From: Clostridia bacterium
Lineage (GTDB): Bacteria; Bacillota; Clostridia; TANB77; CAG-508
Length of the DNA stretch: 64,000 nucleotides
Reading direction: 5' to 3'
Assembly (NCBI GenBank): GCA_017410505.1
Contig: JAFQQR010000027.1
Span: 31,461-95,460, forward strand
Shown in pieces: positions 16,188 through 37,790 of the stretch (its first letter is position 1; each line of letters starts with the position of its first letter). The position numbers and the translations under genes are program-made. Under the pieces are notes generated by a model, which saw only the letters and a program-made list of their open reading frames with translations, was not told the DNA's origin and did not search any database.

Positions 16188-16272
16188 TGGTGCGGATGAA
16201 GGGACTCGAACCCCCACGCCGTTGGCACTGGTTCCTAAGACCAGCGCGTCTACCAGTTCCGCCACATCCGCA
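16188..16272 (-). tRNA. tRNA-Leu, anticodon UAG, with a long variable arm and encoded CCA
   Basis: The reverse complement reads GCGGATGTGGCGGAACTGGTAGACGCGCTGGTCTTAGGAACCAGTGCCAACGGCGTGGGGGTTCGAGTCCCTTCATCCGCACCA. The anticodon loop is CTTAGGA. A TTGACA-N18-TATTAT promoter lies just upstream at 16279-16321. Confidence 0.85.
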
Positions 16273-17357: not shown

Positions 17358-17604
17358 GTTTTTCTTCCTTTTCTTTCAATGTGCCTCTAATTAGAGGTCT
17401 TATTGTGTTTATCTGTTGCAAATTCCAAATTGGACCTAAAGGTATTATATCACATTTTACATAATTTGGCAACCCTGTTTTTCAATCTCATCAAACTTTA
17501 ATTCTAAAAAAATATGAGTAACATATATTTATATTAAAACAACTATAAATTTGTATGTAAATAAGTAATATCACCTATTTCATACAATAAAATTGGAGGT
17601 TAGA

Positions 17605-18063
17605 ATGAAAAAAATAATTGCAAGTTTATTATTTATAATTATGTCAATTCCAGTATATTCGTTCGGACATGATTCAACTAGCTCATACATATGGTCAACT
17701 GATATAGATTCAATAGCAGTTAATTCTTCAGATATACTTGAAACAAACTCAGAAATTGAAAATAACAACTCCTTAAATTTAGAAAGTGGTTCAGCAATAT
17801 TAATTGAACAATCAACAGGTCAAGTACTTTATTCTCATAACGCACATGAACAATTATGTCCAGCATCAGTAACAAAAATAATGAGTATTCTATTGATAAT
17901 GGAGCAAATTGATAATGGTTCTCTATCTTACTCAGACACTATTAGTTGTTCTGAAACCGCACGTTCTATGGGTGGTTCTCAAATATGGCTAGACCCAAGA
18001 GAAACCTTAACAGTTGATGAAATGCTAAAAGCTATTTGTGTTGTATCAGCAAATGATTGTAAT
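17605..18063 (+). pseudogene. dacF: D-alanyl-D-alanine carboxypeptidase (PBP5/DacF-DacB-like), 5' portion only; interrupted by an inserted element
   Basis: It has a signal peptide, the SxxK active site (PASVTKIM) and the SxN motif region ..AICVVSANDC. After that, the reading frame diverges into element sequence. The ATG at 17605 has a GGAGGT RBS. Confidence 0.8.
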
Positions 18064-18117
18064 GTTCAAAAAAGGCAGGAAAATGAAATTTGTGAACACT
18101 CTACAGAAATAGAGTGT

Positions 18118-19704
18118 TCACTTTTTGCAGGAAACAATTTTAGATGGTTTTTTTTCAAATTTATAATATATATGAATATAATTTTCATACACTTCTATTT
18201 TATCAATCAATTCACTTATGTCTTCATTAGATAGAATATCTTTATTTAGATTTTTTAAGATTTCTTTAACTTTCTTTATTTTCGCTATATTTTCATTACT
18301 ATTCAATTTTTCTTTTTCATTCTCTAAATTTTTTATAATTTCTCTTATGTCTTTTCTTTTTTGAGTTAATTCTTTATATAACTTTTTATAATTTTCTTCT
18401 AAAATGCTTTCTTGTAGTCTATCATTATATAGTTTTGTAATTTTGAATCTTAATAAGCCTAATTCTTTATTTAATTCTTTTAATTGAATATTTATTTTTT
18501 TAACTTCTATATCATTATATTTTTTCATAAGACTCGTATTTAAATTACTCTTTTTTAAGAATTTAGCAAATTCCTTTTCTATATCTTTAATAATTAAACT
18601 TTCTAAATCTTCATATTTATATAAGATATTATTTGAACATAAATATGAAGATTCATTTCTGGAAGGACAATGAACATTTATAAAATTTCTTGACTTTCTT
18701 TTTGCCATCCTTTTTTTACACTTACCACAATACATATATTTGGAAAATTTAGCATCTATCCCTTCTTTTCCACTAGCTGTTTTTCCAAATTTATTGTTAT
18801 CATGAATTTTATTATAAATTTCTTCAGTGATAATAGGTTCATGTGTCTTTTCAGTCGTTATTTGTTCACTTCTTTTTACATAAATTCTTTTTTTACTTTT
18901 ATAACTAATATTTTGTGTTTTTCCTCTCAGACATTTTCCTGTATATACTTCATTAGCTAATATTCTTGTAATTATTGATCTTGTCCAGACTTTTTTTGTC
19001 CTATTTTCTAGTCCTTTTACTTTTAAGTATTCTGCTGGAGTAATAATTTCTTCTTTATTAAATAAATCTGCTATTTGTTTTGCTGTTTTTCCTTCTAATG
19101 TTAATTTAAAAATTCTTTTGACATTTATACTAGCTACTTCGTCTATAATTAATTTTCCTTGATTATCTGGATCTTTCATGTAACCATATGGAGCTACATT
19201 ACAACTATAATATCCATCAAGCATCTTCTTTCTTTTACTTCTTTTGACTCCCTTAGATGTTTCTTTACAAAATAATTCATTAAAAACACCTTTTATTGGT
19301 GCAAATTCATTTGCTATTTTATCTTCAAAATTGTCTACTCCGTCTAAAATAGCAATATATCTAATATTATTGTTAGGAAATAATTTTTCTATATATTCTC
19401 CCGCTTCAATATAATTTCTTGCAAATCTAGCTAAGTTTTTTGTAATTACTAAATCTATTTCATTTATTTTTAATTCTTGAATCATTTTTTTAAAACCTGG
19501 TCTATCAAATGTAGCTCCTGAAACTCCATCATCTACATATTCATAATATTTTTCATAATTAAAATTCTTTTTTATATAGTCGAGGATAATTGCTCTTTGA
19601 TTAGAAATGCTTTCACTTTCTTCAGTATCACCATCATCTTTACTTAGTCTTAAATATATTGCAACATTACGAACTGATGACTTTTCTAGTCTTTGGATTA
19701 TCAT
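18118..19704 (-). CDS. Large serine recombinase (resolvase N-terminal domain plus recombinase, zinc-ribbon and coiled-coil regions)
   Basis: VAIYLRLSKDDGDTEESESISNQR...YVDDGVSGATFDRPGFKKM...VITKNLARFARN is the catalytic serine region. 528 aa. It stops 55 bp from the dac junction. Confidence 0.9.
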   Translation of the reverse strand: MIIQRLEKSSVRNVAIYLRLSKDDGDTEESESISNQRAIILDYIKKNFNYEKYYEYVDDGVSGATFDRPGFKKMIQELKINEIDLVITKNLARFARNYIEAGEYIEKLFPNNNIRYIAILDGVDNFEDKIANEFAPIKGVFNELFCKETSKGVKRSKRKKMLDGYYSCNVAPYGYMKDPDNQGKLIIDEVASINVKRIFKLTLEGKTAKQIADLFNKEEIITPAEYLKVKGLENRTKKVWTRSIITRILANEVYTGKCLRGKTQNISYKSKKRIYVKRSEQITTEKTHEPIITEEIYNKIHDNNKFGKTASGKEGIDAKFSKYMYCGKCKKRMAKRKSRNFINVHCPSRNESSYLCSNNILYKYEDLESLIIKDIEKEFAKFLKKSNLNTSLMKKYNDIEVKKINIQLKELNKELGLLRFKITKLYNDRLQESILEENYKKLYKELTQKRKDIREIIKNLENEKEKLNSNENIAKIKKVKEILKNLNKDILSNEDISELIDKIEVYENYIHIYYKFEKKPSKIVSCKK

Positions 19705-19711
19705 AATTGAA

Positions 19712-21325
19712 CTATCCTCCTATACAATTTAACTCATAAAAATTAAAGTGAATTAGTACATTTTTATCCTTATCTATTTCAATTTTATTAACTAATTGTT
19801 GTACATCTTCTTTTTTTAGCTCATTTTTATTAGCTATCTTTTCAATTACATTTTGTATTTTATCTTCCATTTTTTTATCATCATATTTTTTATCAAATTC
19901 TTTGATTTCTTCTTGTGTAATTTCTTTTAATTTTTCTAGTTTATGTCTTTCTTTTATCATATTTTCTGAAAAACATATATAATCTTGTTCTTCTATTAAT
20001 CCGCCCAATTTATCATTATATAATGTAGAAATCTTTTTGTTTAAAATATTTAATTGAGTATTGATTTGTTCTATCTTTTCTTCTAATTTCCCTTTGTTAT
20101 TTTGAGATTTTATCAAATTCTCTAATAAGTGTTTATTATTAAAAACATTTGACGTTATATATTCTCTAAATATATTTGATATTTTATTTAATATTTTTTC
20201 CTCCAATCTATCATAATTCACATATTGTCTATAACATATTTTGTTAGTTACTTCTCTTGTTGCTGTACTACAAATAATATATCTTCTAATTGTTACTTTA
20301 TCTTTGTATTTGTCTTTCTTTTTAACAATTTGTAGCTTATTCTGACAATGATAACAATATAGTAACGATTTTAGTAATGGATCTTCTTCTTTTATTTTTT
20401 CTCCTATATATTTTTTAAACAAGGATTGAACCATATTCCATGTTTCTATATCAATAATGGCTGGATGATGATTTTCAGTAATAGTATGTTGGCTTTCAGG
20501 TAATGTAATCATTTTCTTGCTTTTATAACTAATCTTTTTTCTTTTATTTTGAACAACTGTACCTATATATATTGGATTTGTTAAAATTCTTTTTATTGTT
20601 GTATGTCTCCAAATATTAGTAGTATTTGTTATATTGTTTACTACTCCTGTCATGTTCATGGATAAACCTGGCGTAACTACTTTTTCTTTGTTTAATAATT
20701 GTGCAATTTGATATGTTCCTTTTCCTCCAATAAACTCTTTAAATATTTTCCTTACTATATCTGCAGTCACTTCATTAATCTTTAGATTCCCTGCTTTATC
20801 TATTTTTGTATATCCAAATGGTGCATAACTTGTATAATAGAAGCCTTCTTGTTTTTTTCTATTTTTAGTTTTTTTTATGTTTTTAGATGTTTCTTTAGCA
20901 TAAAAATCATTCATTATATTTTTAAACGCAACTGTATCACAGTTCTTATCCAAATATGTATCCACATCATCTAATATCGCAATGTAACGAATTTCGTTTT
21001 CTGGAAAAAATGTTTCAATATATCTCCCTGTTTCTATGTAATCTCTTCCTAATCTTGCAAGGTTTTTTGTGATTACCATATTTACTTTTCTAGTTTCTAT
21101 ATCTTTAATCATTCTTTTGAAATTTGGTCTATTAAAATTAGTTCCACTATATCCATCATCAATATATTCATCATAAATGTTGTAATTATTTTCTTTCACA
21201 AATTCTTTTAATATTTTTCTTTGATTCGTTATACTTTCACTTTCCTCCTTATCTCCATCATCTTTACTTAATCTCATGTATAAAGCTACCGTATAACTTT
21301 TATTATCAAAGTTACTCGCTTCCAA
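19712..21325 (-). CDS. Large serine recombinase, second tandem copy
   Basis: VALYMRLSKDDGDKEESESITNQR...YIDDGYSGTNFNRPNFKRM...VITKNLARLGRDY. 537 aa. Confidence 0.9.
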   Translation of the reverse strand: MEASNFDNKSYTVALYMRLSKDDGDKEESESITNQRKILKEFVKENNYNIYDEYIDDGYSGTNFNRPNFKRMIKDIETRKVNMVITKNLARLGRDYIETGRYIETFFPENEIRYIAILDDVDTYLDKNCDTVAFKNIMNDFYAKETSKNIKKTKNRKKQEGFYYTSYAPFGYTKIDKAGNLKINEVTADIVRKIFKEFIGGKGTYQIAQLLNKEKVVTPGLSMNMTGVVNNITNTTNIWRHTTIKRILTNPIYIGTVVQNKRKKISYKSKKMITLPESQHTITENHHPAIIDIETWNMVQSLFKKYIGEKIKEEDPLLKSLLYCYHCQNKLQIVKKKDKYKDKVTIRRYIICSTATREVTNKICYRQYVNYDRLEEKILNKISNIFREYITSNVFNNKHLLENLIKSQNNKGKLEEKIEQINTQLNILNKKISTLYNDKLGGLIEEQDYICFSENMIKERHKLEKLKEITQEEIKEFDKKYDDKKMEDKIQNVIEKIANKNELKKEDVQQLVNKIEIDKDKNVLIHFNFYELNCIGG

Positions 21326-21402
21326 ATTTCCTCCCTTCTTTGTAATTATCTATGCCTAATTATTACTACATTTATTTCTATATTTAAAGTCAAGAAAAAA
21401 CT

Positions 21403-21588
21403 TTAATTAGATTCATTCATTTTTCTTATTATTATGTTTTCAGCAATTGACTGGAAACTTTGTCCATGTTCAGCATAAGTTACAATAATGTTATAATCTT
21501 CTTTCTTCTTGTTTTTTTCTTTTGTTTTAATTATGTTTTCACTTTCTTCCATAGCTTTCACCTCAATTAAATCTATGATTAAAAACAA
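21403..21588 (-). CDS. Small hypothetical protein; candidate recombination directionality factor, speculative
   Basis: 61-aa ORF directly upstream of the recombinases. No motif. Confidence 0.25.
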   Translation of the reverse strand: MFLIIDLIEVKAMEESENIIKTKEKNKKKEDYNIIVTYAEHGQSFQSIAENIIIRKMNESN

Positions 21589-21715
21589 AAGAATATTATA
21601 AAAAAGAAGCTTAGTTTTGTACTAAACCTCTACTATACATTTCCTCCACTCTTTCTTTAACTTTTTCCATCTATATTCTCCTTAATACTCAATATCCTAA
21701 GTTTTATAGATTATT

Positions 21716-22687
21716 TTAATTATCTATGCCATATTGTTTTAATAGCCATTTTAAAGGTTCTTCTCCATCTTTTACTTCCTCTACTCTAGATAATAAATCA
21801 TTATACACATCTTTATTTTTTTTGTATAAATATGTAACCATTAGCTTTCTGTCATCTTTTTTCCCATTATGGATTCTTTTATGACAATTCGGACATAAAT
21901 TAATAATGTTCTTCGGATTATCTATTATTTCCTTTGGAAATTTTTTATCTTTTCTTCCATTACACTGTTCTATCAAATGGTGTGCTTCATAATAATTCAT
22001 TCCATTTTCTTTTTGAAATGTATTATGGTTTGCATCTTTTAAGCCTTTGCAATTTTCTAAAGTACATTTAGACATTTTATTCATATCCTCTGCTAATTGT
22101 TCAAGACTATAATTTTTATATTTTTTCGAATTACAAGCTTTCTCCAAGTCTTCTATTAATTTTCTTTGATAATACTCTTCTAACTTATTATCGTTATTTT
22201 TTTGTAATAAATCTTCTTTTAAATGCTGTTTTCCCTGCAAATTATTTATACCATATTTATTGAATAAAGCTTCTTGTGAAAATTTTTCTTTATCACTATT
22301 TACACATAGTGCATTTTCGAATTTTAGTCTTATTGCTGGAATTTTATCTATTTCTCCTTTTAACATTTTTTCTTCTTCCTCAGGAGTTTCACAGTAAAGA
22401 CAATCTTTCTCTAAGACTCTACATTTAATTAAAATTCTATTAATTCTATCAGGCAAATTCGTGTAATAAATATATACTATATCATCTTCTTCTACTTTTA
22501 AATCTCTTTTTACTTTACCATTTTTCCATAAAATTCCTTCATAATCTTTACCTTTATCTTCATTAAGTAATTTATCAAAATCAAACTCTTCAAAATTACC
22601 TAAAATCAGATGATGTTTATAATGTTCTTTTTTACCTTTTTTTTCAGTTTCGAATTTTGCTTTACTTATTTTTTTTATATCACTCAT
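21716..22687 (-). CDS. HNH endonuclease with a tentative N-terminal PUA/EVE-like domain; candidate modification-dependent (type IV-like) restriction enzyme
   Basis: C-terminal HNH: YEAHHLIEQ...NIINLCPNCHKRIHNG. The N-terminal region GILWKNGKVKRDLKVEEDDIVYIYYTNLPDRINRILIKCRV resembles the PUA/EVE fold pattern. No search was possible. Confidence 0.55.
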   Translation of the reverse strand: MSDIKKISKAKFETEKKGKKEHYKHHLILGNFEEFDFDKLLNEDKGKDYEGILWKNGKVKRDLKVEEDDIVYIYYTNLPDRINRILIKCRVLEKDCLYCETPEEEEKMLKGEIDKIPAIRLKFENALCVNSDKEKFSQEALFNKYGINNLQGKQHLKEDLLQKNNDNKLEEYYQRKLIEDLEKACNSKKYKNYSLEQLAEDMNKMSKCTLENCKGLKDANHNTFQKENGMNYYEAHHLIEQCNGRKDKKFPKEIIDNPKNIINLCPNCHKRIHNGKKDDRKLMVTYLYKKNKDVYNDLLSRVEEVKDGEEPLKWLLKQYGIDN

Positions 22688-22710
22688 AATTATTTCCTTT
22701 AAATTTCATT

Positions 22711-22783
22711 ATTTTAAATATTTATCTCTATTTTAAATATTTATCTCTATTTTAAATATTTATCTCTATTTTAAATATTTATT
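22711..22783. repeat. 19-bp direct tandem repeat ATTTTAAATATTTATCTCT, 3 full copies plus 1 partial, between the WYL gene 3' end and the HNH gene start
   Basis: Read directly from the sequence. The copies are contiguous with no spacers, so this is not CRISPR. Confidence 0.85.
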
Positions 22784-23758
22784 ACTTGCATCCTCTATTA
22801 TTTTAATTATTTCACTTCTTAGATTTATAGGTTTTTTTACTTCTACTAGATCTAAATTTCTCATAGCCCATAGTTTAAATCCAAAAGGATTTACTTTAAG
22901 CTTCATTTTAAAACTATCTTTATTGATTGGTGCTATTTCTACATTTTTGCCAAATTTCTCAATTACTTCTCCTAACAAATATTCATTGCATTCCGCTTCT
23001 ATTTCTACCTCATCACCACTAAATACCTCTACAGATGTATCTGCATATTGTTCTATATCCTTTTCAGATTTACTTATTTTTATTATCTCTGCTAGTTCTT
23101 TTAAATTTTTTATTCTATCTAGTCTATAATGATAAAACTCTTTATTTCCATCTTTTATTGCTAACATGTAGAATTGCTGTTTATCATATATTATAGCATA
23201 AGGAGAAACTACAGGGGTACTTACAATTTGTTTTTCCACTCTATCTCCTACTATGCAGTATTTCCAATATTCAAATTTAACTTTATTTTTATTCATTATG
23301 CTATTTGAAATATCTTCAATGTTTTTTATAACTTCAACATTATTTGTTCTTCCTTTTGGAGAATATACTCTATAATTTTTAATCTTTTCATTTTCATATA
23401 CATTTTGTAAGTTCTTACATTTTCTTATTATTCCTTTGGCCATTCTCTGTTCGATGAATGTAGAATAGCTAAATGTATCAATAATAGCTCTTATCTCTCC
23501 TGGTTCAAAATCTGTTTCTGGATCATTGCTTATGTAATACCCTATTTTGTTATCATTATATGTGCTAATGTCATATCCAAATTTTTGTTGCAAAAGATTA
23601 ATATTTCTTCTTATTGTTCTTGGATCAATATCTTCTCCATATTCTTCTTTGATTTTTTCTTTAAGTTCTGATATTGATAGTTTATGTTCTTCATCACTGT
23701 ATTTTTTTAATACATTTAATATGTATAATATGTTTCCATTTTTTTCGTATAAATCCAT
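22766..23758 (-). CDS. WYL domain-containing transcriptional regulator (HTH-WYL, BrxR/CapW-like)
   Basis: The N-terminal wHTH is YILNVLKKYSDEEHKLSISELKEKIKEEYGEDIDPRTIRRNINLLQ. A central WYL-like region and a C-terminal extension follow. 330 aa. Confidence 0.7.
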   Translation of the reverse strand: MDLYEKNGNILYILNVLKKYSDEEHKLSISELKEKIKEEYGEDIDPRTIRRNINLLQQKFGYDISTYNDNKIGYYISNDPETDFEPGEIRAIIDTFSYSTFIEQRMAKGIIRKCKNLQNVYENEKIKNYRVYSPKGRTNNVEVIKNIEDISNSIMNKNKVKFEYWKYCIVGDRVEKQIVSTPVVSPYAIIYDKQQFYMLAIKDGNKEFYHYRLDRIKNLKELAEIIKISKSEKDIEQYADTSVEVFSGDEVEIEAECNEYLLGEVIEKFGKNVEIAPINKDSFKMKLKVNPFGFKLWAMRNLDLVEVKKPINLRSEIIKIIEDASNKYLK

Positions 23759-23780
23759 ATTTTAATTCTCCTTTGCATTT

Positions 23781-24797
23781 TTAAAATAAATAAAATATTT
23801 TTAACTTTTCTTTAAGTATATTTAAAACTACATTATCAGATTCTTTACTAATAAGAAATTCATATAACTCATTTCTCGCGATTGGAATTATTTTGTTATC
23901 TTTTTCATCTATACATCCATACCCATCTCCTTTCAATCCTGAAAATAAATATATTTTTTCAAATTTATTTTTATCCTTTGCATCATTAAGATAGTCATTA
24001 TACTTAACAATGTTTTTATTTTTCACTTGGCATGTAATGTGTTTATTTGTATCAGTTTTATTAACTAAATCAAATTCATATTTAATTTCATTTTTTTTAC
24101 ATTGTGATGGATATAAAACATAATCTTTATGTTTTTCAATTATATAAGCATATACTAAATCTTCTAAATCAATAGAAGATAATGTACTTGTAAAATTATC
24201 TAAATTTATTTTAATATACGATTTTTTCATTGTATTGTGATATAAATTATATATGAAATGTTTTATTATAGCATTATCATCTGAGTTTGTGGCTATCCTT
24301 TGTATAGTAGAATGTCTTCTTTGTGACATTCTGCCTATAATATGTCCTGGAAGATTATTTTTATTAAATTTTTTCCATTCTTCAACTTTACAATACCAAC
24401 TAAATCTTGAAATAAATTCTATATTACATGGTTCTGCTTTTTCACTTACTTTTCCAATATAATAATTTCCATCTAATAGTCTTGTTATTACATAATCACC
24501 AATTTCTATATTTAGAAAATCTCTTAGTGCAGAATCAGCACTTTTATTAAAAAATTTTTTATATAATTCTCTTATTTTATTTTTATCTTTATTGAGTTTT
24601 ATAAATTCTTTTGCCTTTTTTTGAATATCAAGAAACTTATTATTATCACAATAATTCCATCCCATACCAAATACATTTTGCATATAACATTTTTGTTGAA
24701 ATTCGCTTATTTCATTCATGGATACAGTATTGTTAAATGGTTTTATAAATGTTATCCAATAATTTTTATTTTTATCATAATTTATATTTTCTCTCAT
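23781..24797 (-). CDS. Hypothetical protein with a possible C-terminal PD-(D/E)xK nuclease motif
   Basis: 338 aa. ...EDLVYAYIIEKHKDYVLYP...YEFDLVNK...ITCQVKNK has a D...(E/Q)xK-like arrangement. Weak. Confidence 0.35.
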   Translation of the reverse strand: MRENINYDKNKNYWITFIKPFNNTVSMNEISEFQQKCYMQNVFGMGWNYCDNNKFLDIQKKAKEFIKLNKDKNKIRELYKKFFNKSADSALRDFLNIEIGDYVITRLLDGNYYIGKVSEKAEPCNIEFISRFSWYCKVEEWKKFNKNNLPGHIIGRMSQRRHSTIQRIATNSDDNAIIKHFIYNLYHNTMKKSYIKINLDNFTSTLSSIDLEDLVYAYIIEKHKDYVLYPSQCKKNEIKYEFDLVNKTDTNKHITCQVKNKNIVKYNDYLNDAKDKNKFEKIYLFSGLKGDGYGCIDEKDNKIIPIARNELYEFLISKESDNVVLNILKEKLKIFYLF

Positions 24798-24987
24798 AAT
24801 TTATCTCCTCTTTTTTATTTCAATAATATAATACCTTGCATTTTCTGCATTTTTATTTTCTATATTTTTAGTATTATTGTCATCAAAAATCTTTTTCCAA
24901 ATAGTTCCTTATTTCCATTTATAAATTCCTTAATATATTCTCTTAAATTAAGTTTTTCTTCCATATATATTTCTTCCTTTTCCTTTT

Positions 24988-26505
24988 TTATTTTGCAATC
25001 TCTTTCAATCTCTCCCAAACTTTAACCATAGCATAAGTATCTAACTTGCAATAAACTAACAATCCATTTCTTAGTTGTTCTTGCTCTTCTTTAGATTTTC
25101 CTTTTAAACTCAGAAATGTCTCAGATGCCTCTCCTCCATTATGTACAACTGGCAAATTATTATAGTCAAGTTCTGGATCATTTGGATATAATGCCGGTAA
25201 TACTTTCTTTATTGATGCTGAACCTTGCATTTCTTTCATATAAAACTGTCTCCTTTTGAATGGTGGTAAGAAATCAACCATATTACTATTTATTCTTAAC
25301 AATTCATTTTTCAGATCTGGATATAACTCTGCAAGTTCATTTATTCTTGAATGTTCAAATCCTTTATTATAAACTATAACGCTTCCATTTTCAGGTATGT
25401 CTTTAATCATGTTTTCTGCAAAATGTCTTAGAAAATTTTTATCATCTACCTCTGCTAAAAATTCTTTATGCTGTAGTTCTGCATCTTCTTTTTTAATTAT
25501 ATGAAGTGAATATTGAAAAGGTAGTTGTTGATACGGTTTAGTGTTATCATATTCTGGAATAGCTAATTGAAATGTTTCAAAATCTATGAAATATAAAGGA
25601 TATTTTAGCGAATTTATCAATTCTCTTATAGGTTCAATTTCTATTTTAGGTTCACGATTATTTATTTCAAAATCTATTTGTTCTAAATAAGTTTCATTTA
25701 GATTCTCATGTTGCAAATCTTCAAAAGAAATCTTTCCCTCATAATATTTTTCAAACTTTTTATCTGTATGCATTCCACCTTTTATATCAAATACATTTGG
25801 CTTAGGTAAGTCTTTGGTACAATATTCCCAGTATTCACAACCATACGGTTTTGTACATTGCATACCTATCACTTCTTTTGGTTCATTGTTTTCATCATGT
25901 GTATTCATATATTCATTTATCTGAATAATTCTATCTTTTATTTCTTTTTGTTTTAATACTGCAATTTCAGATATATCTTTAATATTAAATAATTTATCTA
26001 GCTCTAATTCTCCATGCTTTACATATTGATTATTTATATAAACTATACTTACTCTTTTAACAAGATATCCTAGATTACTTAGAACATAATATTGATATGC
26101 TGCATCATCCAAATAAATATCATGTACTTCTGTCGAGCTTTTTACTTCATATATTTCTACACCATCTTCTGTATTTTTCAAAATATCAACACTGCAAAAA
26201 TTATGGTTATATTCAAATGAAGCCTCAGTTATAATATTAGGCACTTTTTTTAGTGCCTCTTTTGTATCTGAAATCATTTTTGATAAATCACTATTAAATT
26301 CAATATTAACATATTCTCCAAATAGTCCTCTAGCTAATTCTCCAACCATAGTTCCGTTCTTAAAAACAGAATCTTTTGCAGATTGTACTTTTTCTTCTTG
26401 TTTATATTTATCCATCCATAATATCTTTTTGCATTGTATTGATTTGCAATATCTTGATTTTGATAAATAAACATTACAAACTATTTTTTCATCAGCCTTA
26501 TCCAT
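24988..26505 (-). CDS. Two-domain nuclease-like protein: N-terminal Cas4/RecB-like PD-(D/E)xK domain with Cys cluster, plus C-terminal DEDD-type 3'-5' exonuclease-like domain (DUF2779-like)
   Basis: The N-terminus is YLSKSRYCKSIQCKKILW. The ExK motif is IYEVKSS. The Cys triad is QCTKPYGCEYWEYC (C-x5-C-x5-C). The C-terminal half carries YFIDFETFQ (Exo I-like D-x-E). Confidence 0.5.
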   Translation of the reverse strand: MDKADEKIVCNVYLSKSRYCKSIQCKKILWMDKYKQEEKVQSAKDSVFKNGTMVGELARGLFGEYVNIEFNSDLSKMISDTKEALKKVPNIITEASFEYNHNFCSVDILKNTEDGVEIYEVKSSTEVHDIYLDDAAYQYYVLSNLGYLVKRVSIVYINNQYVKHGELELDKLFNIKDISEIAVLKQKEIKDRIIQINEYMNTHDENNEPKEVIGMQCTKPYGCEYWEYCTKDLPKPNVFDIKGGMHTDKKFEKYYEGKISFEDLQHENLNETYLEQIDFEINNREPKIEIEPIRELINSLKYPLYFIDFETFQLAIPEYDNTKPYQQLPFQYSLHIIKKEDAELQHKEFLAEVDDKNFLRHFAENMIKDIPENGSVIVYNKGFEHSRINELAELYPDLKNELLRINSNMVDFLPPFKRRQFYMKEMQGSASIKKVLPALYPNDPELDYNNLPVVHNGGEASETFLSLKGKSKEEQEQLRNGLLVYCKLDTYAMVKVWERLKEIAK

Positions 26506-26606
26506 TTATATTACCTCTCTCAAATCATATTAAATATCAAGTATCTTGTAAAGTTGTTTGGTCATATAATGTCTTTACGATTATAATATTATATTTCATC
26601 TTTAGT

Positions 26607-27893
26607 TTAATTTCCTTGATAAGTAAATGTTCCTTCACTTTGTCTATATTGGAATGCATTATTTTTAGTAACATCAAAAGCAGTAAAATCATGTGTATAT
26701 GAATTACTTGGTTCATATGTACTATGATACTTTGTATAAGTGAATTTTATAATCCAAGATTTTGTTGTATCGTAGTCATCTCCGTTTGAAAAATAAACTT
26801 TATATGTCCCCTCAGCTGTATCTGTATATCTTTGATTATATACATTCTTCCAATTGCATATCCATGAGAAAGTTCCATCTTTGTTTATAGTATATGTTCC
26901 TCCTGCAGGAGAATCTTGTTGATCACATACATATTTTCCGTATTTTAGAGTATAATTTCCAACCTTTAATCCTTTAGCAGCTTCCTCCTCTGCCTTTCTT
27001 TTAGCTTCTTCTTCAGCTTTTTTTTGTTCTTCTTCTTGTTTTTTCTTTACTTCTTCTTCAGCTTTTTTAATTTCGTTTTGTTTATCAGTAATTTCTGTTT
27101 CTTTAGTTGCTACTTCTTGTTTTATATTTTCTGTTACTACTTGTTCTTTTGTTTTATAGTCTTTAACCTCTTCAGTTATACTGGCTTTTAACTCTTTGTC
27201 TGATAGATTTTCGTTATATTCCATTGTGTCTATATTTACATCTGTTTTTATAAATACTGTATCGAATTTCGAAATTGATAATTTATTTCCATCTACAGTA
27301 TCAACTGAAATTTCTTCACCTTTCTTAAATGTGTATTCTTTTTGTTCAGTTATTGTATCTTCTGCTTGACTTAAATTTGCTGTGTTTTCACTATTTAACT
27401 CATCACTTTTCATTTTTTCTAATTCTGTTATTCTCTCTGATATTTGTGTCTCTATTGGTTTATATATATCTTCTTCTTGGGTTTGTTTATGTAAATACCA
27501 ATCATATTGTTTTGTCTCAATATTATATAAAAATTCTGCATCTGTTGGTTCTAAGTTTATTATATTATTTACTTCTCCATCATTTATAAAATATATATCT
27601 GAATATTGTTTTTCTTCTTTTTCATATTTTACTATCATTATTGGGTTTTCAACCTCTTCTATATCTACAAATCCTATCTTTGAATTATTTTGAATATTAT
27701 TATTTTCTGAATTTTGAGTAGTATTGCTTTCATTATTTGTTTTTGATTCTTTTAAGAAATTATAATAAGTATTTGCCCATTCCTGTTCTATTGGTTTACT
27801 ATTTTCATAATGTTCATATGCGAAATATCCTCCTACTGATGCTATTATTATTACTACCATAATAAGTATAGCTATTAATATCTTCTTTTTCAC
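26607..27893 (-). CDS. Signal-anchored protein with a K/E-rich coiled-coil segment, hypothetical
   Basis: The N-terminus MKKKILIAILIMVVIIIASVGGYFAY is a TM anchor. The middle region is EEVKKKQEEEQKKAEEEAKRKAEEEAAK. Confidence 0.5.
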   Translation of the reverse strand: MKKKILIAILIMVVIIIASVGGYFAYEHYENSKPIEQEWANTYYNFLKESKTNNESNTTQNSENNNIQNNSKIGFVDIEEVENPIMIVKYEKEEKQYSDIYFINDGEVNNIINLEPTDAEFLYNIETKQYDWYLHKQTQEEDIYKPIETQISERITELEKMKSDELNSENTANLSQAEDTITEQKEYTFKKGEEISVDTVDGNKLSISKFDTVFIKTDVNIDTMEYNENLSDKELKASITEEVKDYKTKEQVVTENIKQEVATKETEITDKQNEIKKAEEEVKKKQEEEQKKAEEEAKRKAEEEAAKGLKVGNYTLKYGKYVCDQQDSPAGGTYTINKDGTFSWICNWKNVYNQRYTDTAEGTYKVYFSNGDDYDTTKSWIIKFTYTKYHSTYEPSNSYTHDFTAFDVTKNNAFQYRQSEGTFTYQGN

Positions 27894-31090: not shown

Positions 31091-31880
31091 GACTGCGTAG
31101 TAGCTATGGCTGAACATATCGCAGGTTCAGAAGAAGCATTTGTTCAAATGATGAATGACAAAGCAAAAGAATTAGGTATGAATGACACGACATTTAAAAA
31201 TTGTCATGGCATCGACGAAGATGGTCATATTACATCTAGCTATGATATTGCTTTAATGTCTCGAGAACTTTTATCAAAACACCCTGATATTACAAAATAC
31301 ACAACAATATGGATGGATAGTTTAAGAGATGGCAAATCACAATTGGTTAATACTAATAAATTAATTAGAACATATAAAGGAATTACAGGATTAAAAACAG
31401 GATCAACTTCACTTGCATTATATAATTTATCAGCAAGTGCCACACGAAATGATTTATCTTTAATTGCAGTAATTATGAAAGCACCCTCTACTAAAGTAAG
31501 ATTTGAAGAAGCACAAAAATTACTCGATTATGGATTTAATAAATTCTCTTTTAAAAGTTTCGGAAATAAAGATGATGTGATTCAAACAGTTTCTGTAAAT
31601 AAAGGTGTAAAAAACAGTGTTGATATCATTTTAGAAGAAAATAGCGGTACTTTAATTGAAAAAGGTAAAGAAAGTCAAATTTCTCAATCTATTGAAATAA
31701 ATGACAATATTGAAGCACCTATAAAAAAAGGTGACAAACTTCGGTCAAGTAACTTTTTATTTAGATAACAGGGAGATTGCAAGCAGCAATTTAGTTGCCT
31801 CTAGTGATATTGATAAAATTAATTTATTTACTATGTCCAAAAGAGTTGTTTATAGTTGGATTGATTTATTACGAAGTTAG
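31091..31880 (+). pseudogene. dacF: D-alanyl-D-alanine carboxypeptidase, 3' portion (continuation of 17605-18063) with an extra +1 frameshift near 31742
   Basis: DCVVAMAEHIAGSEEAFVQMMNDKAKELGMNDTTFKNCHG..LKTGST continues the PBP5 fold. The frame 31106-31768 ends ..KKGDKLRSSNFLFR*. The +1 frame continues GQVTFYLDNREIASSNLVASSDIDKINLFTMSKRVVYSWIDLLRS*, which is the conserved PBP5 C-terminus, ending at 31880. Confidence 0.75.
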
Positions 31881-31916: not shown

Positions 31917-33638
31917 TTATTTTTGTTTCAATCTCAAATATCCCTGCTCTTCCCAACTATTATAAGCTAAGTTTAGCTTAAACAACAATTTAGGTTTAGC
32001 TCCCGCTCTATTTTTATCAACAACACAAGCATAATATCTAACATCAGGGTTACTAGATTTTTCTAAATCAAAAAACTTAGTATCAACTTCATTTAATGAA
32101 AATTCATAATCATCGTAGTTATCCCTACTTATTTGTTTCATTAAACATAATGTATCTAAAACTTCTTTTACTGTTCTACTAACAGCTAAATCGTTTACAT
32201 TTAAATTAATTGGTGATGTCGTGCTTTCTGCTAACTGTAATGTTGAACATATATATATGTTGAAATTTTGTGCTAGGTTTGAAAGTATTGTGGCTGTTTT
32301 CTTTATTTCTTCTGTATTTCCTATGTTTGCTGTGTCTGTTTTTAATGTATCGTAGAATACATATTCTATTTGTTCTTTGTAGTAATAATTTATTATGACT
32401 TTTTTTAGTTCATCATTCGTATGGTCTGTAATATTAATAAAATATATTGAATTCTTTATTTGTTTACTTGCCCATTCAATTGCTTTAATCACTTTATTGT
32501 ATTCTGATGAGTTTTCTGAAATTCTTTTTACAAATTGTCTTTGTGTTTCTCCTTCTTCTTTTAGGATATATCCTTCTTCATCTAGTTTTACACTTTTTTT
32601 GTTATCTGGTTTAAATTTAAATTCTAATAATTCCCCTTCTGATATTTTTACTTTTTGTCCATGTATTTTTTGTATTTCTGGATTATTAAGAATTGTTGTT
32701 ATCAAACATAATTTCATTTTTTCTTCTGACATTTCGTTTGATATTATTAATACCTTCTTTTTATGTACTAGTGCTGTATATGCCGCAATATCTATTGTAA
32801 GTCTACTTTTCCCTGAATTTGATGGCATTGCTATTGCTGTTGTTTCTCCTTTTCTTATTCCTTTAAATACTTCTGTTAATATTGGAAATGGATATTCTAA
32901 TCCATTCGCTAATTCGTTATCTCCACTTTCTAAGAATTCTACAAGATTACTGCTTAATACTGCTTGTTTGAATTTTTGAGTTACTTTTACTTGTTCTATT
33001 GTGCTTTCAACTTCTTCTGTAGACATTTTGTCATATAGTTCATAATTTGTTATTTCAACAATTTTTTCTTGTATATTTTCTTCTGGTGTTTCTAAATATG
33101 CTTTTCTTAGTATAAATAATTTCCTTAATTCACTATAAATTTTTTCTATTTTATAACCTTTGTCTCTTACATCTTTTCTTAGTTTATTTTTTAAATCATA
33201 TACTTTTTCTGAATCTTTTGAAAAGTTAAATTTATTTTTAGCTGGTTCTGATGAATATTTTGATCCTTCATTGTATAATACACTTTTATATATATTTAGC
33301 ATTTCATCATCTTCAAACATACAAATATCAAATAAGAAATAATATTTTGCTATTAATTTTGGATTTTCTAATAACATTCCTATAAAAATATGTTCTAATT
33401 CTATATTACTTAATTGTTTTGGATATGCGCCATCTGCTTCATCTTCTAATTCCATTTCTATATATTCTTCATCTTCATCTTGTTCCTTTTCTTTTGCTTT
33501 TAATTCTCTCATTTTTTTTAGAGCTTCCATATAATTTTCTGTTGCTAATAAATGCTTAATTTCATTTATATATTTTTCGTTCTTTCTTGTTACTTTAATA
33601 CTATTTAATAAATCATATATATTATCCATACTATCCAT
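31917..33638 (-). CDS. DnaB-family replicative helicase-like protein, divergent
   Basis: DnaB N-domain-like IFIGMLLENPKLI...IYKSVL. RecA-fold Walker A AMPSNSGKSRLT. 573 aa, with an acidic insert. Confidence 0.65.
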   Translation of the reverse strand: MDSMDNIYDLLNSIKVTRKNEKYINEIKHLLATENYMEALKKMRELKAKEKEQDEDEEYIEMELEDEADGAYPKQLSNIELEHIFIGMLLENPKLIAKYYFLFDICMFEDDEMLNIYKSVLYNEGSKYSSEPAKNKFNFSKDSEKVYDLKNKLRKDVRDKGYKIEKIYSELRKLFILRKAYLETPEENIQEKIVEITNYELYDKMSTEEVESTIEQVKVTQKFKQAVLSSNLVEFLESGDNELANGLEYPFPILTEVFKGIRKGETTAIAMPSNSGKSRLTIDIAAYTALVHKKKVLIISNEMSEEKMKLCLITTILNNPEIQKIHGQKVKISEGELLEFKFKPDNKKSVKLDEEGYILKEEGETQRQFVKRISENSSEYNKVIKAIEWASKQIKNSIYFINITDHTNDELKKVIINYYYKEQIEYVFYDTLKTDTANIGNTEEIKKTATILSNLAQNFNIYICSTLQLAESTTSPINLNVNDLAVSRTVKEVLDTLCLMKQISRDNYDDYEFSLNEVDTKFFDLEKSSNPDVRYYACVVDKNRAGAKPKLLFKLNLAYNSWEEQGYLRLKQK

Positions 33639-33783: not shown

Positions 33784-34422
33784 TTATTCTTTTATTTCAA
33801 ACATTTTAAGTAACTCTTCATAATAACATTCATTAGTAATGGCTGTATCATTTTTTGGTTTAATACTTATTTTCACCTTTTCATTTTCCAATTCTTCTAT
33901 TGTAATACTATCTATGATACTCTGTAAAATAAATTTTTTTTCTTTTTGGTTTATCAAAGATAATATTTCTTCTTTCGGAAAAGCTATTGAAGATATTAAT
34001 TTTCCTTCTCCTAATAGTATGTCTGCCTTTAATTCTTTTTCTCCACAGTTTTTAAATATTATTTGTTTTATTTGATTAGATAAAATTTTATCTTGGATAG
34101 TTTCGTTTTTTATTGTAAGATAATTTTTCAAATTTTCTTCTTTTGTAGTTTTCTTCATTTTGTCTATTTTTATTTTGAATATTTGTTTATCTAATCTTGT
34201 TATTAATATGGAACTGTAAAAAATTAATATTGCAAAAATTGATACGCTACCTACATATACTATAAAAAATGCTATCTCACTTCTAGTATTATTGTAGCCC
34301 CACAATGTTACTATAACGACATTAATAAGAAGCATCAAAACTTCTATATCCTGTATTTTTTGTAGAATTCTTTTTTTCTTTTTTAGTTGTTCTACATCAA
34401 CTTTCCGTCTGCTTTCTTTCAT
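33784..34422 (-). CDS. Hypothetical membrane protein with 2 TM segments
   Basis: 212 aa. Two hydrophobic helices follow a basic N-terminus. Confidence 0.45.
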   Translation of the reverse strand: MKESRRKVDVEQLKKKKRILQKIQDIEVLMLLINVVIVTLWGYNNTRSEIAFFIVYVGSVSIFAILIFYSSILITRLDKQIFKIKIDKMKKTTKEENLKNYLTIKNETIQDKILSNQIKQIIFKNCGEKELKADILLGEGKLISSIAFPKEEILSLINQKEKKFILQSIIDSITIEELENEKVKISIKPKNDTAITNECYYEELLKMFEIKE

Positions 34423-34541: not shown

Positions 34542-37220
34542 TTATTTTTCAAGTCTTTCCATTACTTTTTGAAGCATTTCTCTATATTTTTCTAATTTAT
34601 CTTTTTCCTCTTGAATTTTCTTTTCAGGTGCTTTGTTTACAAATCCTGGATTTGAAAGCATTTTTTCACATCTTGCAACTTCAGCTTCTAATTTAGTTTT
34701 TTCTTCTTCTAGTCTTTTTCTTTCTTCTTCCATATCAACTAAATCTTCAAGCGGCATATATAGTTCAATTCCATCTTGCATTATAGCTATGCTGTTTTCT
34801 GCTATTCCTGTTTTATCTTTTTGAACTCTTATTGATGTTCCAAATCCTAGTTTTAATAAGAATTCTTGTGCTTCTAAAATTTCTTTTTCATATTTTTCAG
34901 TTACAAATATTAATTCTGATTTTTTAGATGGATGTATATTCATATTTGCTCTTATATTTCTTATTTCAACTATTATTTGTTTTATTTTTTCAACTGTTTG
35001 TTCTTCTATTTCAAATACAAATTCTTTTCTTATTCTTGGCCATTTTGAAACCATTAAATCTTCATCTTTATATTTTACTAATTTATCAAAAATTTCAGAT
35101 GTTACAAATGGCATAAATGGATGTAATAATTTTAACGATGTTTCAAATACATGGTTTAATATGTCACTTACTGCTATTTTTGTTTCTTCATTTTCACTAT
35201 ATATTCTTGATTTTACCATTTCTATATACCAATCACAGAATTCATTCCAAATAAATCCGTATATTTTATCAATAGCAATTCCTAAATCATAGTTTTCTAT
35301 ATTTTTTGTTACATCTGCTACTAATTTGTCTAATTTATTTAAAATCCATTTATCTTCCAATGTTAGATATTCTGGGTTGTATGAATGTGTTTCATGGTTA
35401 TATACTTTATGACAGAATTCTTTTACTTTTTCTTCATCTGGTGTATTCATTATTATGAATTTAGCTGCATTCCAAATTTTATTTGCAAAGTTTGATGCTT
35501 GGTCTAGTTTTTCTGGCATGTATCTTATATCATTTCCCATTGTTGTTCCTGATAATACAGAAAATCTTAATGCATCTGCTCCATATTGGTCGATTATTTC
35601 TATTGGGTCAATTCCATTTCCTAATGATTTTGACATTTTTCTTCCTTGTGAGTCTCTTACTATTCCATGTACTACGACATCTTTAAATGGATTTTGATTT
35701 GTTAATTCTAATCCTTGTGTCATCATTCTTGAAATCCAGAATGTTATAATATCATATCCTGTAACTAATGCGTTTGTTGGATAGAATGTTTTATAATCTT
35801 CATTTTCTTCGTTTGGCCAACCAAGTGTTGAGAATGGCCATAATGCTGAACTGAACCATGTATCTAATGAATCTTCATCTTGGTGTAATTTATTAGAACC
35901 ACATTTTTCACATTTTTCTGGCATCTGTTTTGCTGCATGCATATGTCCACATTCATCACAATAGTAAATTGGAATTCTGTGTCCCCACCATAATTGTCTT
36001 GATATACACCAATCTTGAATATTATCTAACCAGTTGAAGTACATTTTTTCATATCTTTTTGGTACAAATTTTACTTCATCGTTTCTAACTGAGTCTGCTG
36101 CTCTTTTTGCTAAATCTTTCATACTTACAAACCATTGCTCAGAAATTCTTGGTTCTATTGTATTATGACATCTATAGCATTTTCCAACATTATGAGTATA
36201 GTCCTCTGTTTTTACTAATGCTCCTATTTCTTCTAGTTTTTTAACTATTTCTTTTCTTGCATCTATTGATTTCATTCCTTTATATTCTGGAACTAAATCT
36301 CCCATTATTGAACTGTCATTAAATACTTCTATAATTTCTAAATTGTTTCTTAATCCAGCTTGATAATCATTTGGGTCATGTGCTGGTGTAATTTTTACAC
36401 ATCCTGTTCCAAATTCTTTTTCTACAAAGTCATCTGCAATTATTGGAATTTCTTTATTCATAATTGGAAGTATACATTTTTTTCCTATTATATCTTTATA
36501 TCTTTCATCATCTGGATGTACTGCAACAGCTGTATCTCCAAGCATTGTTTCTGGTCTTGTTGTTGCAACAATTATATATTTATCTGTATCTTTTATTTGA
36601 TATCTTATATGCCATAAATGTGAAGCTTCATCTTCATACTCAACTTCTGCATCTGATATTGTTGTGTGACATGATGGACACCAGTTTATCATTTTTTTAC
36701 CTTTATAAATTAGATCTTTATTATATAAACTAATAAATTGTTCTAATACTGCTTCAGATAAACCTTCATCCATAGTAAATCTATTTCTTTCCCAATCACA
36801 AGAACATCCAAGTCTTCTTTGTTGTTTTTGAATAGTTCCACCATATTCCTTAGTCCAAGCCCAAGCTCTATCTAAAAACTCTTCTCTTGTAATATCAGCT
36901 TTTGTTAAGCCTTCTTCCTTTTTCATCTTTTCAACAACTTTTACTTCTGTTGCAATAGCAGCATGGTCTGAACCTGGAAGCCATAAAGTATTATAACCTT
37001 GCATTCTTTTAAATCTTATTAAAATATCTTGTATTGTACCATCTAAAGCATGTCCCATGTGTAATTTACCTGTTACATTTGGTGGTGGCATCATTATACA
37101 ATAACTTTCTTTTGTTTTGTCCATACTTGGTTTAAAGTATCCTTTTTCTTCCCAGTCTTGATATAGCTTTTCTTCAAAATCCTTTGGGTTGTATTTGTCA
37201 TTTAATATTTTATCTTTCAT
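34542..37220 (-). CDS. valS: Valine--tRNA ligase
   Basis: HIGH (PNVTGKLHMGHAL), KMSKS (KMSKSLGN), the editing domain and the C-terminal coiled coil are all present. The true start MKDKILNDKYNPKDFEEKLYQDWEEKGYF has a GAGGAGG RBS. Confidence 0.95.
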   Translation of the reverse strand: MKDKILNDKYNPKDFEEKLYQDWEEKGYFKPSMDKTKESYCIMMPPPNVTGKLHMGHALDGTIQDILIRFKRMQGYNTLWLPGSDHAAIATEVKVVEKMKKEEGLTKADITREEFLDRAWAWTKEYGGTIQKQQRRLGCSCDWERNRFTMDEGLSEAVLEQFISLYNKDLIYKGKKMINWCPSCHTTISDAEVEYEDEASHLWHIRYQIKDTDKYIIVATTRPETMLGDTAVAVHPDDERYKDIIGKKCILPIMNKEIPIIADDFVEKEFGTGCVKITPAHDPNDYQAGLRNNLEIIEVFNDSSIMGDLVPEYKGMKSIDARKEIVKKLEEIGALVKTEDYTHNVGKCYRCHNTIEPRISEQWFVSMKDLAKRAADSVRNDEVKFVPKRYEKMYFNWLDNIQDWCISRQLWWGHRIPIYYCDECGHMHAAKQMPEKCEKCGSNKLHQDEDSLDTWFSSALWPFSTLGWPNEENEDYKTFYPTNALVTGYDIITFWISRMMTQGLELTNQNPFKDVVVHGIVRDSQGRKMSKSLGNGIDPIEIIDQYGADALRFSVLSGTTMGNDIRYMPEKLDQASNFANKIWNAAKFIIMNTPDEEKVKEFCHKVYNHETHSYNPEYLTLEDKWILNKLDKLVADVTKNIENYDLGIAIDKIYGFIWNEFCDWYIEMVKSRIYSENEETKIAVSDILNHVFETSLKLLHPFMPFVTSEIFDKLVKYKDEDLMVSKWPRIRKEFVFEIEEQTVEKIKQIIVEIRNIRANMNIHPSKKSELIFVTEKYEKEILEAQEFLLKLGFGTSIRVQKDKTGIAENSIAIMQDGIELYMPLEDLVDMEEERKRLEEEKTKLEAEVARCEKMLSNPGFVNKAPEKKIQEEKDKLEKYREMLQKVMERLEK

Positions 37221-37237
37221 AATCTTTATCCTCCTCT

Positions 37238-37519
37238 TGTCCATTTGGGACGTTTCTTTTTGGACAAAAATGTCCATTTGGGCCAGATGTTGTGTCCTTT
37301 TGAATACCATATTTTCCTTTTTGTTCTTTTGTTAATTCTTCTCGTTTACTTAATTCATAATTTAATAATTCATCTTCTAGTCTTTCTCTTAATGTCATAA
37401 ATCGTAGTGCTTCTTTAAATAAATTTTTCATTTATACCTCCTTTGTCCATCTTGTCCGTCTGGGATGTTTCTGTTCTTTTGGGTACGTATCTATTTGGGA
37501 CATGTCCCAGAATGGACAT
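37238..37519. repeat. MITE-like element with terminal inverted repeats of the TGTCCAWWTGGGACGTTTC family, inserted between the valS T-box terminator and the valS RBS
   Basis: The left end TGTCCATTTGGGACGTTTCTTTTTGGACAAAAATGTCCATTTGG closely matches the uvrA-copy TIR. The right end carries the inverted copies GGGACATGTCCCAGAATGGACAT. Confidence 0.5.
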
Positions 37520-37524
37520 AAAAA

Positions 37525-37790
37525 TAAAATAGCCCACCCTTATTGTAAAATAAGGGCGAGCTTTTATCTCACGGTACCACCTTAATTATTATCTATTGCT
37601 ATTATTTAGATAACATCTCATTTAGCTTTAACGCAGCTTTACGGATAATCTTAAGTTTATTTTCGGATTATCAACTCCAAAGTTACTTTCCATTTATCCT
37701 AATTTCAGAAGTTTACAGCCTATGACTTCTGTTCTCTTTAAATTGGTGCTTAAATGTACTTTTCTTTTTCTTTGTTTTTATTTTATTATG
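37525..37790 (-). ncRNA. T-box riboswitch leader (valine specifier GUA) for valS
   Basis: On the minus strand: a Stem I AGAGA motif, the specifier GGCUGUAAAC, and the T-box sequence AATTAAGGTGGTACCGTGAG. The terminator hairpin GCCCTTATTTTACAATAAGGGTGGGC is followed by a U tract. Confidence 0.7.

Follow-up and report, generated by a model that had tools for sequence, protein, structure and literature searches.

A 64,000-nucleotide (nt) stretch of a metagenome-assembled gut genome deposited at NCBI as ‘Clostridia bacterium’ (assembly GCA_017410505.1, contig JAFQQR010000027.1, forward-strand positions 31,461 to 95,460; locus tag IJE05_03295), hereafter referred to as the window, carries on its minus strand, from 26572 to 21605, a compact gene cassette that on balance we read as a defence operon. 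It would comprise two modification-dependent nucleases, a dual exonuclease of the DUF2779 family and a WYL-domain regulator acting through a conserved promoter box, with one of the two nucleases, an EVE-HNH endonuclease, being an add-on in a slot behind the regulator gene. In the direction of transcription, the cassette consists of the following features (protein lengths in amino acids, aa):

26572-26559, minus strand: candidate operator ACATTATATGACCA, an instance of the conserved box ACAWWNNNTGACCA
26552-26524, minus strand: cassette promoter TTTACA-17 nt-TATGAT, its -10 ending 18 nt ahead of the DUF2779 ATG
24988-26505, minus strand: DUF2779 protein, 505 aa
23781-24797, minus strand: PDC-S02-family protein, 338 aa
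22766-23758, minus strand: WYL regulator, 330 aa
22705-22782, minus strand: variable tandem repeat, three copies of AAATATTTAAAATAGAGAT plus a partial one, with the WYL stop codon within the first copy
21716-22687, minus strand: EVE-HNH endonuclease, 323 aa
21605-21631, minus strand: terminator-like hairpin followed by a T-run, 85 nt past the HNH stop codon

The promoter scores 10/12 and belongs to the seven best promoter-like sites within 21300-26800. Downstream of it, the hairpin at 21605-21631 is the sole terminator-like site on the minus strand (26552-21631 scanned), and the intergenic distances are short, with 22 nt between the PDC-S02 and WYL genes and 78 nt between the WYL and HNH genes. 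Because of the absence of any earlier terminator-like site and these short gaps, the segment from 26572 to 21605 is most likely a single transcription unit, carried on a mobile element of ~13 kb that is described further below.

The second gene encodes a full-length member of the PADLOC family PDC-S02 (hidden Markov model PDLC04816, E = 2.7e-35; residues 29-319 against profile positions 15-280 of 299), relatives of which carry PF28530 (Pfam DUF8426). Its N-terminal part (residues ~10-170, nt 24288-24770) is an EVE/YTH-like reader domain with a helical insert at residues 52-95, and its C-terminal part (residues ~205-335, nt 23793-24185) a PD-(D/E)xK nuclease domain. The latter shows the alpha-beta-beta-beta-alpha-beta core of restriction endonucleases together with acidic residues and a (D/E/Q)xK strand, and this fold matched MspJI (7.8), LlaBIII (7.4) and AspBHI (7.2). 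Invariant in the family are E212, D213, E241 and Q257-V-K259, which fit a QxK-type PD-(D/E)xK site. The same QxK variant is shared by Mrr. Taken together, the protein probably joins a PUA-type reader to a PD-(D/E)xK nuclease and, as such, would be a modification-dependent restriction enzyme. It would fall into the same class as MspJI, AspBHI and the EVE-PD-(D/E)XK fusions, i.e. type IV enzymes combining a PUA-superfamily domain with a PD-(D/E)xK nuclease (PMC7641849), from which it differs in that its reader is EVE/YTH-like with a helical insert rather than SRA-like and its catalytic motif is E...QxK. Single-sequence searches of the PDB with the PDC-S02 and WYL proteins returned noise only, including a PHF19 Tudor match at E = 0.12. 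The family is abundant, accounting for 760 representative clusters in a library at 50% identity, and has been called thousands of times in rumen surveys.

In the product of the last gene, an EVE-like domain (residues ~10-130, nt 22298-22660) is joined via a helical linker to an HNH domain of the beta-beta-alpha-metal type (residues ~205-290, nt 21818-22075). Pfam HNH_2 matches residues 231-275 (E = 3e-5), the region aligns with that of EcoKMcrA (6ghc), and the conserved His/Asn/His residues and zinc-binding cysteines are all present, the invariant positions being H236, H237, N260, C265, C268, H269 and H273. The N-terminus has the EVE fold of the PUA superfamily, while Pfam EVE gave no match in this protein; W54, Y72 and Y75 are aromatics that are invariant in the family. 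Fusions of EVE with either HNH or PD-(D/E)XK domains are known as type IV architectures, be they established or predicted (PMC6765204, PMC7897488, PMC7641849). In particular, VcaM4I has the identical layout of reader, helical linker and HNH (PMC7897488). It has a hydrophobic pocket (P24, W82 and Y130) for a flipped 5-methylcytosine (5mC) or 5-hydroxymethylcytosine (5hmC). By sequence, however, the window's family stands apart from the TspA15I/VcaM4I/CmeDI group (PMC6765204, PMC7897488): it is small, with 14 matches, its gene in the window sits behind a WYL regulator, and a profile built from the 14 relatives found, among all PDB sequences at E<=10, the McrA HNH domain only and not 6yex. The window cassette holds two reader-nuclease fusions, not one.

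The first gene was readily assigned to Pfam DUF2779 (E = 2.9e-45), alongside a weak PADLOC match to Cas4. Members of this family combine an N-terminal Cas4/RecB-like PD-(D/E)xK nuclease with a C-terminal DEDD-type 3'-5' exonuclease (PMC3985635, PMC13621843), the latter being akin to the mitomycin-repair exonuclease MrfB (PMC13621843). Motifs corresponding to these published nuclease domains, VDIL...EIYEVK...QYY and DFE...YCKLD, are found in the translation. In the full-text library searched, DUF8426 is not mentioned; DUF2779 gave seven hits, none describing its linkage with PDC-S02 or WYL. The cassette would tie this widely distributed family of unknown role to defence islands.

The third gene product is a regulator with a winged helix-turn-helix (wHTH; residues ~12-58), a WYL domain (146-220) and a WCX domain (~230-325), supported by Pfam WYL (E = 4.5e-9) and HTH_12 (E = 4e-3); WCX was detected in 12 of 19 relatives. 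This is the architecture of BrxR/CapW-type regulators, and WYL proteins are known to govern defence islands that include type IV enzymes, for instance the pEFER island with BREX and the GmrSD enzyme BrxU (PMC9122601). Similar to such BrxR/CapW islands, the window places a wHTH-WYL-WCX protein within a mosaic of type IV restriction enzymes, with one sequence box repeated at more than one promoter. Yet, the BrxR/CapW arrangement, in which the regulator gene comes first and an inverted-repeat operator lies between promoter and start codon, is not found here, because the WYL gene is the third of the cassette and the candidate box is non-palindromic and located upstream of the -35 element. BrxR, in comparison, is encoded upstream of its system and represses via an 11-bp inverted repeat downstream of the promoter (PMC9122601). 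The sequence of the window protein is nearer to DriD and PafBC, transcription activators of the WYL type that respond to single-stranded DNA (ssDNA): the best matches of the family profile among solved structures are DriD (7u02, 8tp8; E = 3e-7) and PafBC (E = 1e-4). The candidate box of the window regulator lies beside the -35, a position that fits activators of this kind, whose operators adjoin or replace the -35. DriD and PafBC, however, control chromosomal damage regulons, whereas the window regulator is found on mobile DNA in the company of exchangeable defence genes. Overall, the cassette looks like a variant of known anti-phage islands that differs from the closest systems in sequence-level family membership, regulator position, box type and its DUF2779 partner.

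To place the cassette in context, 35 species-level genomes with PDC-S02 were gathered from an 8-sequence alignment, and a further 80 loci were retrieved from metagenomes by way of the WYL clade to which the window belongs (clade A); individual loci are denoted by L numbers. In 23 of the 35 species-level loci, PDC-S02 has an adjacent WYL gene of the same orientation (downstream in 14, upstream in 9), and DUF2779 stands directly upstream of PDC-S02/WYL in L008, L009, L016, L018, L044, L048 and L053. While PADLOC lists PDC-S02 as a single-gene candidate of unknown fold, it is thus a WYL-paired gene in most of these loci, often with DUF2779 added. L008 and L009 share the order DUF2779-PDC-S02-WYL in tightly packed form, their PDC-S02 proteins being 45-68% identical to that of the window; in the comparison of this gene trio, identities to the window were 56-69% for DUF2779, 59-79% for WYL and 39-68% for PDC-S02. 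In the metagenome set, 46 loci have sufficient upstream sequence, and in 22 of them DUF2779 precedes WYL in the same orientation. Among the families examined, PDC-S02 and DUF2779, not HNH, are the commonest recurrent partners of WYL.

The position between DUF2779 and WYL, which PDC-S02 occupies in the window, is variable. It holds GmrSD_N+C (HEC-06) in L084, L086 and L087, GmrSD_N (HEC-05) in L071, a dGTPase in L085 and a PDC-S26-like gene in L059; nine loci have a gene for a 144-aa protein there, others have further genes, and in several the position is empty. Directly after WYL comes the HNH gene in the window and in L053, where the order DUF2779, WYL, 16-bp gap, HNH reproduces the window arrangement minus PDC-S02; in L054 and L085, GmrSD_N genes take this place. 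What recurs is a frame of DUF2779 and WYL, in which defence genes, most of them type IV restriction enzymes, gather in a slot ahead of WYL and in another behind it.

An earlier note on this DNA had already proposed a WYL-controlled nuclease cassette, and much of it stands. Its three minus-strand genes and its perfect 19-bp repeat are where it had put them, as open reading frames (ORFs) and Tandem Repeats Finder show; the regulator does lie upstream of an HNH gene; the protein further upstream, taken for PD-(D/E)xK-like, has the restriction-endonuclease fold with an invariant active site; the HNH N-terminus does have the suspected PUA/EVE-like fold; and the placement of a WYL gene directly before a type-IV-like nuclease recurs in L053, L054 and L085. 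The upstream protein, described as larger, exceeds its neighbours by only 8-15 residues, and both its identity as PDC-S02, which emerged from the PADLOC check that the note had suggested, and its own reader domain had been missed. The interpretation given there is partly supported, by the nuclease fold, the regulator architecture and the WYL-nuclease linkage, whereas the repeat array as a control site is not. The DUF2779 gene (24988-26505), a part of the same conserved unit, had fallen outside the coordinates considered.

The strongest lead to the regulator's target is the box ACAWWNNNTGACCA, which matches the window twice against 0.17 expected. In the first 53 loci, all 27 matches are intergenic and in the orientation of the cassette, and across the metagenome loci (593 kb) 61 matches fall on the plus and 8 on the minus strand. 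Of 62 loci, 28 have the box within 150 nt past the WYL stop, and variant forms add about ten. In homologous loci, it is usually located 1-30 nt past the WYL stop together with a near-consensus promoter, AATACATTnTATGACCAAnAnnnTTGAAAA-(~17)-TATAAT, and is also found upstream of the first gene of the cassette. Alignment of 20 instances from cassette flanks revealed an invariant ACA..TGACCA at a fixed position relative to TTGAAA-N17-TATAAT. In the genome and encoding-contig sets, the box is present in 11 of 11 loci whose WYL protein is 42-79% identical to that of the window (most of them 58-79%; L044 has a variant form) and absent in 11 loci in which this identity is ~28%. We infer that ACAWWNNNTGACCA is a candidate binding site of the WYL protein, and because it sits just upstream of the -35, the geometry suggests activation, as is the case for DriD and PafBC. 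Alternatively, the box may belong to the ends of a mobile cassette as a terminal repeat, or serve in its recombination; the operator reading is preferred because the distance to the -35/-10 pair is always fixed. A candidate operator for this Clostridia WYL clade would open both the ligand and the question of activation versus repression of defence to direct testing.

In many loci, the -10 that follows the box lies within the 5' arm of a hairpin with a T-run (L008 6291-6373, L009 8091-8173, L018 8456-8538, L035 9136-9218, L042 6117-6199, L050 3220-3302 and others). The same ~75 nt could therefore end transcripts arriving from upstream and yet permit fresh initiation.

With these components, the cassette might work as follows. 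Both reader-nuclease fusions would be modification-dependent, type IV-like restriction enzymes, in which a modified base of incoming DNA would be flipped into the PUA-type pocket and the DNA cut nearby. The DUF2779 protein would trim or degrade the cleavage products, and the WYL protein would bind ACAWWNNNTGACCA and make expression of the operon depend on a nucleic-acid signal, in the way that DriD and PafBC respond to ssDNA. The 19-bp array would have no part in this beyond being a slippage-prone duplication that at most alters the spacing between WYL and HNH.

Several points weigh against this interpretation. Nuclease activity, ligand and DNA binding are all predicted from sequence and fold; the reader domain of PDC-S02 was matched to YTH by Foldseek with a marginal E-value of 1e-3; and the HNH family, whose alignment is shallow (14 sequences), shows no sequence-level relation to VcaM4I. 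The box lacks dyad symmetry, in contrast to the palindromes or pseudopalindromes recognised by BrxR and DriD, and L007, L016 and L024 bear the box without a visible WYL gene in the available sequence. Unique to the window is a spacer of 190 nt (24798-24987) between DUF2779 and PDC-S02, compared to 2-3 nt in L008 and L009, and this spacer could hold an internal promoter; the region contains two short tandem repeats, one with a unit of 18 bp (2.5 copies, 24759-24804) and one with a unit of 15 bp (2.1 copies, 24840-24870), as well as weak promoter-like sites. Finally, in the one published test, a PDC-S02 representative did not protect E. coli B from T4, T5 or T7 (bioRxiv 10.1101/2024.09.26.614923). 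This phage set presents neither 5mC nor unglucosylated 5hmC, and the negative outcome is compatible with an enzyme requiring a modification that is absent or masked in those phages. An uncharacterised but widespread PADLOC candidate would in this way gain a concrete proposed identity that would also account for its negative test.

Is the EVE-HNH gene part of the system at all? It may instead be an autonomous, stand-alone type IV enzyme that landed beside the WYL cassette and is neither regulated by nor functionally linked to it. The family is rare, and its relatives are solitary among unrelated housekeeping genes in four of the seven contexts examined (L003, L005, L007 and L051); in L050 the relative lies 6.7 kb from a PDC-S02-WYL pair. 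Furthermore, no HNH-family gene was found within 6 kb of PDC-S02 in the 35 species-level loci, nor in the 80 clade-A WYL loci. Against this stand the position of the gene after WYL on the same strand without an intervening terminator, in the window as well as in L053, the occurrence of GmrSD_N genes at the same post-WYL position elsewhere, and the start of the box 4-6 nt past the HNH stop in L007, L050 and L053. We thus regard full independence of the HNH gene as unlikely and retain the reading as an add-on of the operon.

Some of the solitary HNH relatives are directly followed by a SAM riboswitch (L003 9051-9134, L007 9081-9164) that controls the next gene, encoding a protein of ~285 aa; in L007 the box lies between the HNH stop and the riboswitch promoter, and in L003 no box is found there. 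The conserved sequence after HNH in these two loci had been considered as a part of the system and was rejected, since it is this riboswitch of the next gene.

The recurrence of the DUF2779 and WYL genes invites a broader reading of the defence operon, which we put forward tentatively and hold to be as improbable as an independent HNH gene. DUF2779 and the WYL clade, often together with an AAA+ ATPase of ~526 aa, would form a conserved sensing and regulatory chassis of gut and rumen Clostridia, on which interchangeable effectors (EVE-PD-(D/E)xK, EVE-HNH, GmrSD, dGTPase) are expressed from ACAWWNNNTGACCA promoters, with an ssDNA or oligonucleotide signal made by the exonuclease switching on the WYL activator. 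If true, these loci would constitute an inducible plug-in defence platform rather than constitutive type IV enzymes. The usual first gene of the box-driven operon beside WYL encodes either this ATPase (AAA plus AAA_lid_6) or a DnaB_C-only protein of 259-275 aa:

L008 6428-8008, L018 8555-10126, L024 2845-4530, L042 6204-7817 and ~27 metagenome loci: AAA+ ATPase
L009 8195-8974, L035 9314-10093 and L050 4174-5001: DnaB_C-only protein

Neither of the two is encoded by the window element. Run on the neighbouring AAA+ ATPase, DnaB_C-only, MBL-fold and other proteins, PADLOC returned generic AAA matches only. Two box-driven operons (L009 2632-5997, L035 3369-5972) open with an MBL-fold protein of 403-406 aa (Lactamase_B_2/RMMBL), followed in L009 by a protein of ~174 aa and then DUF2779, and in L035 by ORFs of 251 and 171 aa, DUF2779 not being detected there.

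Several of the same observations could be accommodated by a DNA-damage or repair regulon without anti-phage function, in which a DriD/PafBC-like WYL activator would respond to damage by inducing exonucleases and nucleases that read lesions. The profile of the regulator matches two damage-response activators, the box is at an activator position just upstream of the -35, the C-terminal domain of DUF2779 resembles MrfB (PMC13621843), and the neighbouring box-driven operons encode DnaB_C-type ATPases, an MBL-fold protein and, in L050, Pol III alpha. However, the genes found in the slots are typical of defence (GmrSD type IV, dGTPase, PDC-S02, PDC-S26, HEC-05, HEC-06), and both the differing content among close relatives and the carriage on a mobile element are what one sees in defence islands rather than with core repair genes. 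More distant PDC-S02 relatives, moreover, adjoin Cas12a. A repair regulon is accordingly rather improbable in our view, and the defence operon remains the preferred reading.

The most conspicuous sequence feature of the cassette, the 19-bp repeat, was traced by Tandem Repeats Finder to 22710-22782 (period 19, 3.8 copies, 100% matches, score 146), and a pattern search of the window returned three exact copies and one with three mismatches, against 0.86 expected by chance. On the coding strand, the first 15 of the 19 bases of the unit AAATATTTAAAATAGAGAT are the last four WYL codons (K-Y-L-K) and the TAG stop; each unit includes an 8-bp palindrome, AAATATTT. An independent assembly of the same element, L001, is 99.81% identical over 21 kb and differs in three places: one single-nucleotide polymorphism, a run of A5 instead of A6, and a 38-bp gap that corresponds to exactly two repeat units. 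The copy number is therefore 3.8 in the window and 1.8 in L001, and the distance between WYL and HNH 78 and 40 nt, respectively. Judging from these comparisons, the array appears to be a recent, unstable tandem duplication of the 3' end of the WYL gene and not a set of conserved binding sites.

Such instability raises the possibility of a contingency locus, akin to phase variation, in which copy number would tune HNH via the intercistronic distance (40 versus 78 nt). In line with this, the array is among just three differences in 21 kb between the two assemblies, and the second of these, the A5/A6 homopolymer, frameshifts a membrane-protein gene and is a typical slippage-prone site. On the other hand, there are just two alleles from two assemblies, the repeat is located neither in coding sequence nor near a strong promoter, and an assembler artefact is possible. 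We consider a contingency function quite improbable.

Least convincing, and very improbable, is the model of the earlier note that the WYL protein binds the repeats as iterons and so controls a promoter of HNH, with WYL and HNH as the functional pair: a genuine, perfect repeat does separate the two genes and contains a palindrome per unit, and WYL directly precedes an HNH relative in L053 as well, but the array is no credible iteron set because it is built from the WYL 3' end, is absent in homologous cassettes and is unstable in copy number. In L053, the homologous gene end AAATATTTGAAATAA carries no repeat, with the HNH ribosome-binding site directly after it within the 16-bp gap. An exact search for the unit in 52 other loci found none, including loci whose WYL proteins are 77-79% identical, and outside the array the only match in the window at up to three mismatches is one with three mismatches at 34166; no other window promoter has a copy. 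That the array occupies the promoter region of HNH was likewise an assumption, as promoter-like matches within it score 9/12 and are at background (52 found against 44 expected from shuffles). As an RNA, the repeat region folds at -9.1 kcal/mol (z -1.9, A-U pairs only), and a role as terminator or structured leader was rejected in view of this weak fold.

The A5/A6 run lies at ~27413, in an ORF at 26607-27893 (minus strand) that encodes a membrane or secreted protein of 428 aa; the run is A6 in the window and A5 in L001, which splits the protein into 160 and 268 aa. The run may be a slippage-prone site.

Turning to the host element, the cassette is part of a ~13-kb serine-recombinase element that interrupts a Peptidase_S11 DD-carboxypeptidase gene near profile position ~110:

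17593-18234, plus strand: N-terminal part of Peptidase_S11, profile positions 8-109
31106-31768, plus strand: C-terminal part of Peptidase_S11, profile positions 111-238

Past the cassette terminator, a small ORF is followed by two tandem large serine recombinases (21325-18118, minus strand), in which the element terminates in the manner of a skin-like intervening element. Intervening elements of sporulation genes can, on this evidence, carry defence cargo. A DNA search of phage genomes with 21400-25000 as the query gave no match, an NCBIfam search with the PDC-S02, WYL and HNH proteins found nothing, and PHROGs returned unnamed families only.

A few further features of the surroundings are worth recording. 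Between the HNH stop and the terminator hairpin lies a mini-ORF of 19 codons (21614-21673, minus strand; MEKVKERVEEMYSRGLVQN) with its own ribosome-binding site, the 3' end of which overlaps the 5' arm of the hairpin. Just beyond the element, beside the C-terminal half of the carboxypeptidase gene, a 573-aa protein (31917-33638, minus strand) has a partial DnaB_C match (E = 1e-9); DnaB_C-type genes adjoin the WYL cassette in other loci, too. Finally, a T-box leader (37549-37781, minus strand) precedes the gene for valine-tRNA ligase (34542-37310), and one tRNA gene is located at 16191-16271 (minus strand).

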